This document shows, piece by piece, positions 11,794 to 13,303 of a stretch of DNA of 64,000 nt. Position numbers and translations under genes: made by a program. Position 1 is the stretch's first letter. Every line of letters starts with the position of its first letter. The DNA is from Bacillota bacterium (GTDB lineage: Bacteria; Bacillota; Clostridia; Peptostreptococcales; Anaerovoracaceae), in contig JAAVYD010000143.1 of assembly GCA_022790955.1 (NCBI GenBank), positions 4,635 through 68,634 of the forward strand, written 5' to 3'. A model generated the notes under the pieces. The model was not told where the DNA came from. It saw nothing but the letters and a program-made list of their open reading frames with translations, and made no database searches.

Positions 11794-11820
11794 AAAATAT
11801 AGGAAAGGCAGGGATGTTCT

Positions 11821-12771
11821 ATTGATTTAAGAGACCAGTATTTCGGTACGGAGATTGAGATGACAGGGATTACCCGGAAACGCGCGGCGGAAGTGGTGGG
11901 GGAATTGTTTCATCATACACCGAAGTATGATGGAGGAACTTATGAGGTCTGGAGTGTGCGGGATCCGGAGGGAAAGAAGTGGAAGTTTGCCTATGATTCC
12001 AGTATTAACGCAGAGCGGAAATATCGGGGAGTCTATATAGAAACCAGTTCGGAGTACAAGACGGAGATGGTTACTCCCAAACTGGAATATTCAGAAATGG
12101 AGAAACTGCAGAAAGTGGTACGCTGTCTTAGGAATCATGGGGCTAAGACGAATAGCTCCTGCGGGCAGCACGTCCACGTAGATGCAGGAAATCATACGGC
12201 AAAAAGCCTGAAGAATGCATTGTCGATTATGTATTCTAAAGAGGATATACTGTTCAAGGCGCTGAAAGTGCAGCCGGATCGGGAGGATACATACTGTCAG
12301 AAAGTCCGTCCGGCAGTGCTTGAAAAGATCCGGCGTATGCCGAACAGTACGATTTCAATGGAAAAACTGAAAAAAGCATGGTATGAAGGCAGGGATGGGA
12401 GTTCCCAGCATTATAACTGGACCCGGTACTATGCGTTAAATCTGCATGCAGTGTTCTCCAAAGGCACGTTGGAGTGGAGATGTTTTGAAAGCACGCTTCA
12501 TGCCGGAAAAGTGCGGGCGAATATTGTCCTTGCGCTTGCCATTTCCGCACAGGCAATTAACCAGAAATGTACCCATGCAAAGAAAACGGAGATCACAGAA
12601 AATCCCTGTTTTACCTTTCGGACATTCCTGCTCCGGCTCGGTTTAATCGGACCGGAGTATAAAAATGTCCGGGAACATCTGCTCTGCAATCTGGAAGGAG
12701 ATAAGGCATGGCGGTATGATAAGGACAGTTATGAGTGCCTGAAAAGGAAAAAGGCAGGGGAGGCGAGATAG
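11821..12771 (+). CDS. Amidoligase_2-family (glutamine-synthetase-fold COOH-NH2 ligase) protein; start codon unresolved
   Basis: The frame is open from 11803. The conserved N-terminal motif [13 protein letters not shown] spans the first ATG (11860). Other motifs are [10 protein letters not shown] and [12 protein letters not shown] 11821 is the only plausible upstream initiator. Confidence 0.7.
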   Translation: [316 protein letters not shown]

Positions 12772-12787
12772 GAGGGAGGTGAGGACG

Positions 12788-13303
12788 ATGACAGAGCAGT
12801 TCTATTTTGCTTATGGCAGCAACATGAATTTAGATCAAATGGAATTCCGGTGTCCGAAAGCAGAAGTGGTGGAAAATGTCCGGCTGGAGAATTACCGTTT
12901 GGCGTTCCGGGGAAGAAGTTCTGGCGGAGGCGTGGCGACTATTTTGCCGGAAGAGGGAAGCCATGTGGACGGCGTGCTGTGGAAGATTACACCGGATTGT
13001 GAGAGCAGCCTGGATCTGTATGAGGGCTATCCGCATTTGTACGGCAAAGAGATGATCTGCGTATCCAATGAAGAGGGGAAGAAGCGGGAAGTGATGGTAT
13101 ATACCATCAATGAGCCGTATAAAAGTATTCCGGCAAGACCGTCACAATTCTATCTGGAAGGGATTCTGGAGGGGTGCAGGCAGAATGGTATTCCCACCGG
13201 GCAGATTCTGGAAGAGGTAGAGCGTACCCGGAAAGAAATCAATGCCGCAGAGCAGGAGAAGAGAGGAAAAAAGGGATGTAAAAAAGAACATCGGGAAAGG
13301 TAG
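12788..13303 (+). CDS. Gamma-glutamyl cyclotransferase (GGCT/AIG2-like)
   Basis: GGAGGGAGG RBS. N-terminal FYFAYGSNMN motif, as in GGCT, plus LDLYEGYP with the candidate catalytic Glu. Confidence 0.8.
   Translation: MTEQFYFAYGSNMNLDQMEFRCPKAEVVENVRLENYRLAFRGRSSGGGVATILPEEGSHVDGVLWKITPDCESSLDLYEGYPHLYGKEMICVSNEEGKKREVMVYTINEPYKSIPARPSQFYLEGILEGCRQNGIPTGQILEEVERTRKEINAAEQEKRGKKGCKKEHRER

Follow-up and report, generated by a model that had tools for sequence, protein, structure and literature searches.

The closest described relative of the locus reported here is a gene neighborhood recognized in Firmicutes by comparative genomics, in which an amidoligase, a ligase joining a carboxylate to an amine (COOH-NH2 ligase), is accompanied by an Aig2 cyclotransferase; CJD_1902 of Clostridium perfringens exemplifies the ligase family (Iyer, Burroughs and Aravind, 2008; PMC2588565). 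Its authors favored the synthesis of a glutathione-like peptide over protein tagging, and described an amidotransferase-like thiol peptidase as the partner of the proteobacterial ligase (PMC2588565). To the extent that papers citing Iyer et al. (2009) summarize it, a larger module in LUZ24-like Pseudomonas phages and phiEco32 comprises GGCT, ATP-grasp, amidohydrolase/GAT, amidoligase, and COOH-NH2 ligase proteins and was predicted to modify peptidoglycan (PMC11945000, PMC11318856). Annotations of Clostridium clostridioforme prophages likewise include an amidoligase/cyclotransferase pair. We analyzed such a pair, an Amidoligase_2 gene followed by a gamma-glutamyl cyclotransferase (GGCT) gene, in a stretch of 64,000 nucleotides, hereafter the window, from a Bacillota bacterium of the family Anaerovoracaceae (GenBank assembly GCA_022790955.1, contig JAAVYD010000143.1). 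A first-pass annotation of the window had stated that this kind of pairing was predicted by comparative genomics and that neither a substrate nor a phenotype was on record. The prediction can indeed be traced (PMC2588565), and our literature searches found no experimental work, substrate, phenotype, or anti-defense link for the pair, nor any function assigned in the 18 years since the module was first noticed.

The pair in the window shares with the neighborhood of 2008 the ligase family, the partner family, the gene order, and the host phylum, with no essential difference; it is an ordinary further member of that module, not a new kind of system. What is added is a likely ATT start codon, a conserved C-terminal tail of the ligase, and three mobile-element contexts, one of them a VirB4-hydrolase context. 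The module of LUZ24-like phages and phiEco32 is similar in combining an Amidoligase_2-type ligase with a GGCT, in residing on a mobile element, and in its proposed wall-peptide target; however, only two of its five enzymes occur here, the hosts and the ligase subfamily differ, and no ATP-grasp enzyme, amidotransferase-like hydrolase, or second COOH-NH2 ligase was found among the approximately 40 window proteins scanned or in the related loci. The gamma-glutamyl cycle (gamma-glutamylcysteine ligase/YbdK and human GGCT, C7orf24) follows the same ligase-then-cyclotransferase chemistry leading to 5-oxoproline that is predicted for our pair, whose ligase is a fold-level relative of YbdK and whose cyclotransferase can be aligned with the human enzyme; in contrast to that cycle, the pair has no glutathione synthetase or 5-oxoprolinase partner and lies on a mobile element. 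In the butirosin BtrJ/BtrG and the PafA/Dop systems, an ATP-dependent gamma-glutamyl amide is made and later removed enzymatically, as predicted here; BtrG is a cyclotransferase, and Dop and PafA belong to the ligase superfamily, Dop being among the fold matches described below. BtrJ, however, is an ATP-grasp enzyme, and the locus has neither a carrier protein nor a Pup-like open reading frame (ORF); the resemblance is one of analogy, not membership.

The pair accompanies Firmicutes transfer elements as a conserved accessory, in two conjugative backbones and in gut prophages, and is not strain-specific cargo. A one-genome-per-species scan yielded 80 loci, which together with loci L001-L008 and the window gave 89 sources; the 80 scan loci all come from Lachnospiraceae and relatives, and their ligases are 69-79% identical. 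Within this element family, the GGCT gene lies directly 3' of the ligase gene in 66 of the 89 sources, the order ligase-adhesin-GGCT-sortase occurs in 19, and four end at a contig edge before GGCT could be reached. Linkage of the two genes is kept in every related locus with enough sequence (85/85), which bears out the first-pass view of them as a conserved functional pair.

Beyond this family, tblastn against phages returned 45 distinct records with a full-length amidoligase ortholog (36-72% identity), mostly Candidatus Heliusvirales gut prophages in addition to a Terrisporobacter phage; GGCT is encoded downstream on the same strand in 41 of them, usually about 100 nt away. A profile search for distant homologs led to a second amidoligase subfamily of 335-354 aa, 45-50% identical to the window protein, in Erysipelothrix, Thermanaerosceptrum, Pelotomaculum, Dysosmobacter, Intestinimonas, and others. 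All nine contigs examined carry a different backbone, with MobL relaxase, TrbL_5, and DUF8193-8195. Their ligases are 47-50% identical to that of the window, and in every locus the Amidoligase_2 gene comes after that of a VirB4-like ATPase and is followed by GGACT after a gap of 10-19 nt. A membrane-anchored cell-wall hydrolase (Peptidase_M23, NlpC/P60, or a fusion) is encoded 3' of GGACT in eight loci, at a distance of 4-6 nt in five of them and elsewhere separated from it by one or two cargo genes; in L097 it is present although the gene call missed it. The hydrolase type changes while the ligase/GGACT pair stays constant. This position inside a mating-channel operon argues for co-expression with the transfer machinery and for a link to the cell envelope. 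Among the second-family loci (L093-L108), L093 shows the arrangement at positions 7105-11644, with VirB4-like, amidoligase, GGACT, and hydrolase genes separated by gaps of a few nucleotides. HEPN/nucleotidyltransferase, Fic, large C5 methylase, and YpsA genes appear as cargo at varying spots around the second-family pair.

The first-pass annotation had called the two genes cargo of a conjugative element, an emphasis that we consider misplaced, since the pair is near-invariant in at least two conjugative backbones and in Heliusvirales-type prophages. It had also proposed testing whether the pair recurs across integrative and conjugative elements (ICEs) and plasmids, always in one module. The recurrence was found, with the proportions given above, but the module is not the same throughout, the VirB4-hydrolase setting being that of the second family, and plasmids contributed little: a nucleotide search against PLSDB gave no match and a protein search only three plasmid records, and the pair is therefore not a plasmid-borne feature in that database. 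The first protein search returned 4,980 clusters (90% identity, E <= 1e-5), some with thousands of members, and the representative search 4,696 clusters (50% identity, E <= 1e-3). The module is thus very common; it is present on the main conjugative elements and in a dominant prophage order of human-gut Firmicutes. If a role in envelope crossing or in defeating recipient barriers were shown, it would matter for gene flow within the gut microbiome, the window alone being one more example of the module.

Searches with profile hidden Markov models confirmed the families first assigned from motifs, both proteins scoring above the Pfam cut-offs. The ligase matches PF12224 Amidoligase_2 with 212 bits (cut-off 22; E 1.4e-62; profile positions 3-244 of 245) and PHROG 2443 (phrog_2443 'amidoligase enzyme'). 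The best Pfam match of the cyclotransferase is PF06094 GGACT with 54 bits (cut-off 22.8), in addition to PF13772 AIG2_2 with 40.8 bits (cut-off 27) and PHROG 2520 (phrog_2520 'gamma-glutamyl cyclotransferase'). No NCBIfam model matched either protein, and neither matched PADLOC-DB at E <= 0.01. The motifs quoted in the first-pass annotation (SCGQHVHVD in the ligase, FYFAYGSNMN and LYEGYP in the cyclotransferase) are present, and exactly 16 nt separate the ligase stop from the GGCT start codon, as it had stated. Conserved ligase residues, numbered from the likely start discussed below, are E11 and E13 (GTEIE), E82, H117, H119, and D121 (HVHVD), E218, and R220. Except for D121, these are invariant in 64 amidoligase sequences, down to 45% identity, and the acidic and histidine residues form the predicted active site, with an N-terminal ExE strand, an HxH motif, and a later E/R. 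An alignment of the cyclotransferase to human GGCT (2pn7/2i5t, E 2.3e-14) extends over the YGSN motif and the column of the catalytic Glu98, which is occupied by Glu79 here and by Gln in the human E98Q mutant (3cry). With ratios of nonsynonymous to synonymous substitution rates (dN/dS) of 0.09 (ligase) and 0.17 (GGCT), both genes are under strong purifying selection.

An AlphaFold2 (AF2) model of the ligase, built from an alignment of 64 sequences (pLDDT 90.6, pTM 0.88), and its Protein Data Bank (PDB) matches support the glutamine-synthetase fold named in the first-pass annotation. The best match is YbdK (1r8g, E 2.7e-4, probability 1.0), and others are glutamine synthetases, Dop (5lrt/7oyh), and gamma-glutamylmethylamide synthetase (GmaS, 9qur). 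The probabilities of these matches are 0.97-1.0, yet their Foldseek TM-scores are only 0.35-0.42; the model thus supports placing the amidoligase as a distant, compact member of the glutamine-synthetase-like carboxylate-amine ligase fold. Sequence and profile searches of the PDB detected no similarity between the amidoligase and solved ligases, and an AcrIF9 alignment obtained there (E 0.4) was dismissed as chance. An earlier model from 19 close homologs (pLDDT 64) was discarded along with its Foldseek matches to AdoMet decarboxylase and TBP, which we regard as noise. In a viral structure library, 53 predicted structures matched the current model at E <= 1e-3; nearly all the named ones are phage amidoligases, and none of the names points to a known function.

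The most conserved part of the ligase is its C-terminal tail, comprising the last approximately 60 residues; a profile of this tail gave no significant match in the PDB and no family match. Immediately 5' of the active ligase, phages encode a degenerate amidoligase paralog of 242-254 aa without HxH that terminates in this tail as well (L089, positions 4109-4873; L091, positions 3899-4627). Among the representative proteins, P0146 (457 aa) is an amidoligase fused to a weak, possibly degenerate GGACT match (E 4e-4), P0121 (554 aa) is a C5 methylase-amidoligase fusion that could be a read-through or gene-calling artifact, and P0183, P0238, and P0258 (472-534 aa) carry N-terminal extensions of 150-240 residues with no assigned identity.

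We propose, with evenly divided confidence, that these two cytoplasmic enzymes make and then break a gamma-glutamyl amide. The amidoligase, a small member of the glutamine-synthetase/gamma-glutamylcysteine-ligase/Pup-ligase superfamily, would spend ATP to activate a carboxylate as an acyl-phosphate and would join it to an amine. In the GGCT-type partner, the glutamyl alpha-amino group would then attack the gamma-amide, releasing the free amine and 5-oxoproline. Characterized fold relatives of the amidoligase act on the gamma-carbonyl of glutamate or glutamine, and for this reason the gamma-carboxylate of glutamate would be the most likely substrate. The amidotransferase-like thiol peptidase fold includes gamma-glutamyl hydrolases; because two unrelated enzymes that break gamma-glutamyl bonds thus appear interchangeable as ligase partners, to judge from the 2008 survey combined with established knowledge, the gamma-glutamyl reading gains support. 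As the target, our tentative first choice is a peptidoglycan-type peptide or precursor with a gamma-glutamyl/diamino-acid amine, handled as the element crosses or remodels the wall. It stands slightly ahead of a glutathione-like small peptide or metabolite, itself a doubtful candidate, which is followed by a host or defense molecule modified during establishment, a rather unlikely one; a protein lysine is more unlikely still. The wall is placed first because the hydrolase adjoins the pair in the second family and a sortase and an adhesin neighbor it here, a context that speaks for a chemistry of cell-wall peptides no less than for anti-restriction.

Several points weigh against this proposal. 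The literature searches found no enzymology for any family member, the carboxylate and the amine of the amidoligase are both predictions, and the low TM-scores to solved ligases make substrate inference from the predicted fold weak. A ligase and a cyclotransferase acting on one bond would form a futile, ATP-consuming cycle unless there is a step between them or they are separated in time. Characterized GGCT enzymes use L-gamma-glutamyl compounds, whereas the wall holds D-isoglutamate. The adjacency of pair and hydrolase may reflect mere insertion into a type IV secretion system (T4SS) operon, and the hydrolase of the window lies 22 kb from the pair. In four of the 45 phage records, the ligase is present without a detectable GGCT. 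The phage pair is surrounded by DNA methylases, DUF4314, and a small terminase, with no wall enzymes; in two annotated phages the genes there include, in this order, those for a ParB-N6/N4 methylase, a C5 methylase, the degenerate ligase paralog, the ligase, GGCT, DUF4314, and the small terminase. DUF4314 genes occur near the phage pair (L089, positions 6430-6825; L091, positions 4611-4838) as one does near VirD4 in the window.

The first-pass annotation had favored a role in establishment. In this reading, which extends to counter-defense, the pair would be expressed early in the recipient or in a newly infected cell and would modify or destroy a host protein, a nucleotide, or a defense messenger, beside the methylases, MetK, and ArdC. 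We consider this unlikely, although it draws on several associations. The pair and an orphan C5 methylase probably share one transcription unit; in phages, a C5 methylase gene adjoins the pair or stands one gene off, and some second-family loci have one at a distance of a few genes on the upstream side. In a Heliusvirales survey, 67% of the genomes had a C5 methylase and 59% had MetK, a combination that is also the accessory set of the window element (PMC11283538). In addition, the pair lies approximately 10-12 kb upstream of the MobC and relaxase genes and points at them, which by analogy with plasmids would resemble leading-region geometry, and restriction confronts ICEs and phages alike. 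All of this is association, however, and adjacency is weak evidence, since mobile elements of every kind commonly carry methylases. PADLOC gave no match in a library that covers defense, not anti-defense, and the literature searches linked no amidoligase to anti-defense. The co-orientation with methylases from which the role had been drawn is offset by the second family, whose pair lies in a VirB4-hydrolase operon of the mating channel, with expression expected in the donor.

Equally unlikely in our view is the proposal of Iyer et al. (2008) that the pair makes or turns over a glutathione-like gamma-glutamyl dipeptide or peptide metabolite as auxiliary metabolism, aimed at no particular macromolecule, possibly with a net conversion of glutamate to 5-oxoproline. 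Its authors argued from the missing Pup-like ORF and from gene neighborhoods (PMC2588565). Both enzymes have relatives that fit: human GGCT, whose substrates are gamma-glutamyl amino acids, is the closest solved relative of the cyclotransferase, and the closest fold match of the ligase, YbdK, is a weak gamma-glutamylcysteine ligase. In contrast, the pair is confined to mobile elements and conserved inside operons of transfer machinery, no transporter or further biosynthetic genes accompany it, and the conserved C-terminal tail, shared with the degenerate phage paralog, suggests docking or partner binding and not free metabolism. In a further reading, which we regard as improbable, the pair would be a new kind of counter-defense or host-takeover device that gut Firmicutes elements, both conjugative ones and temperate phages, have in common. 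Its ligase would attach a gamma-glutamyl group to an amine of a host defense component, of a signaling molecule, or of a wall precursor over which the incoming element needs control; the tail would dock the ligase to this target, the cyclotransferase would reset or limit the mark, and the weak ATT start would keep the ligase low.

The start codon of the ligase bears on whether the protein is intact. The first-pass annotation placed the gene from 11803, a coordinate that has to be corrected: 11803 is the first codon past the in-frame stop TAG at 11800-11802 and is no start codon itself. The reading frame is open from there to the stop listed in Table 1, and it contains no ATG, GTG, or TTG between 11800-11802 and the ATG at 11860. 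Initiation at 11860 would cost the protein its conserved N-terminal GTEIE strand with E11 and E13, and because no canonical start precedes this essential motif, the amidoligase most likely initiates at ATT 11821 and has 316 residues. The other possibility is that the gene encodes an inactive remnant starting at 11860, from which the metal-binding GTEIE strand has been lost. Besides the missing start codon, public gene calls would agree with it, as they shorten these amidoligases to 303-304 aa and give the 99% identical copies as 303 aa from MTGITR. We regard a remnant as very unlikely for the following reasons. The canonical start is equally missing in 99% identical metagenomic copies (L001-L005) and in loci of two or more additional clades (L006-L008 with L022 and L017; L085), so that at least three clades are involved, and in these loci the 13 codons before the ATG keep IDL[RK]DQYFGTEIE although synonymous sites differ at many places. 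Three relatives (L077-L079) have an ATG at the exact position of the ATT of the window; lineages without a canonical start show ATT or ATC, whereas most relatives have ATG, GTG, or TTG. A Shine-Dalgarno-like stretch ends 7 nt before ATT 11821, and one lineage of this kind, P0084, was found on more than 300 contigs. The ATT start also overlaps an out-of-frame mini-ORF, ATG TTC TAT TGA at 11814-11825, whose TGA shares a T with the ATT; it could permit termination-reinitiation coupling or be a chance occurrence, and it is missing from the L006 lineage.

Thioester domains attach to the amines of their targets through N-epsilon-(gamma-glutamyl) isopeptide bonds. That the pair serves the neighboring adhesin, the cyclotransferase recycling such isopeptides and the ligase preparing or capping acceptor amines, can be put aside as highly improbable despite the TED_2/TEDa domains of the adhesin, the two interleaved gene orders (ligase-GGCT-adhesin-sortase and ligase-adhesin-GGCT-sortase), and the gamma-glutamylamine cyclotransferase model that is the best Pfam match of GGCT, for the alternative order arose once, phages and the second family carry the pair with neither adhesin nor sortase, neither enzyme has a signal peptide although the adhesin works outside the cell, and in the window a terminator-like hairpin stands between the pair and the adhesin gene. 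The 19 sources with an interposed adhesin (L031, L032, L036, L038, L042, L043, L045, L049-L059, and L086) form one clade on the ligase tree, and the alternative order is therefore a single rearrangement; the interposed adhesin is a different one, 35-39% identical. Interleaving was accordingly rejected as evidence of coupling to the adhesin and sortase.

The coordinates of the pair and of other features in the window are collected in Table 1. The neighbors named in the first-pass annotation (C5 methylase, adhesin and sortase, MetK, N6/N4 methylase, and ArdC-N) were recovered, all co-oriented with the pair. Terminator-like sites flank the C5 methylase, amidoligase, and GGCT genes, which are for this reason considered a probable three-gene transcription unit apart from the adhesin and sortase genes. 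The hairpin behind GGCT is the strong one of the two sites; it has a dG of -22.8 kcal/mol (z -3.35) and is followed by a T-rich tract after the stem; comparable hairpins occur 3' of GGCT in 22 of 53 distinct related sequences.

Table 1. Positions of the ligase/cyclotransferase pair, its signals, and other features of the window.
Feature	Position	Strand	Remark
Weak terminator-like site	10426-10444		Just upstream of C5 methylase
Shine-Dalgarno GAAAGGAGG	10501-10509	+	Then CTG ATA GCC GGA GAA ATT ATT
C5 cytosine DNA methyltransferase frame	10501..11793	+	Upstream of amidoligase; motif I (FDLFSGIGG) near 10534
Shine-Dalgarno-like stretch GGAAAGGCAGGG	11803..11813	+	Ends 7 nt 5' of ATT 11821
Amidoligase gene	11821..12771	+	316 codons if ATT 11821 is the start; stop TAG 12769-12771
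Amidoligase_2 domain	about 11836-12543	+	Pfam
Conserved C-terminal amidoligase tail	12586..12720	+	Outside Pfam domain; two helices in the model
Shine-Dalgarno stretch GGAGGGAGGTGAGG	12772..12785	+	Inside the 16-nt gap before the GGCT start
GGCT/AIG2-like gamma-glutamyl cyclotransferase gene	12788..13303	+	171 codons; ATG 12788
YGSN motif of GGCT (Y9-G-S-N12)	12812-12823	+	Substrate-binding motif
Presumed catalytic Glu79 of GGCT (in LDLYEG)	13022-13024	+	From human GGCT alignment
Intrinsic-terminator-like hairpin, then TTTTCTGTCTT	13302..13341	+	13 pairs, 7 G-C; overlaps GGCT stop
TED/SpaA thioester-domain adhesin (TED_2/TEDa)	13398-17711	+	Downstream of pair; sortase-anchored
Sortase	17698-18495	+	Downstream of pair
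MetK	18801	+	
N6/N4 methylase	21735	+	
MobC/NikA-like gene	23893-24258		
MobA/VirD2 relaxase	24265-25557		
ArdC-N protein	27340	+	
DUF4314 gene	28733-29023		Just upstream of VirD4 coupling protein
Lysozyme-like/CHAP hydrolase	35298-36998		About 22 kb from pair

The C5 methylase gene, found in 84 of 88 related loci, also has an atypical beginning: its frame is open from 10501 with no ATG, GTG, or TTG before 10945. Candidate starts are ATA 10513 and ATT 10525 or 10528; among relatives, the codon that immediately follows the Shine-Dalgarno sequence is variable (ATG, TTG, CTG, CGG, CAG, TCG), and the ATA behind it is constant. In L001-L004 the methylase is called at 355 aa, and by its position motif I would fall outside the call. 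A frameshift was considered and rejected, as translation gives one open frame without a canonical start.

In addition to the features of Table 1, Pfam searches identified the transfer genes VirD4 coupling protein, PrgI, and VirB4, a second adhesin, and further genes (DUF4240, DUF5720, ParM-like, DUF3991-Toprim, DUF6329, and DUF3801). To judge by this gene content, the window carries a conjugative element. No integrase was found among the ORFs scanned, which excluded three ORFs on the minus strand (37090-39216). A perfect 20-bp palindrome (GCGTTTGGAT/ATCCAAACGC) at 23418-23437 and an 18-nt imperfect inverted repeat at 23597-23646 precede the MobC/NikA-like gene and the relaxase; both are candidate features of an origin of transfer (oriT), in which no nick site is assignable. 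The G+C content is approximately 0.31-0.39 before about 8 kb and approximately 0.47 after it, and drops again past about 46 kb; these shifts suggest the limits of the element.

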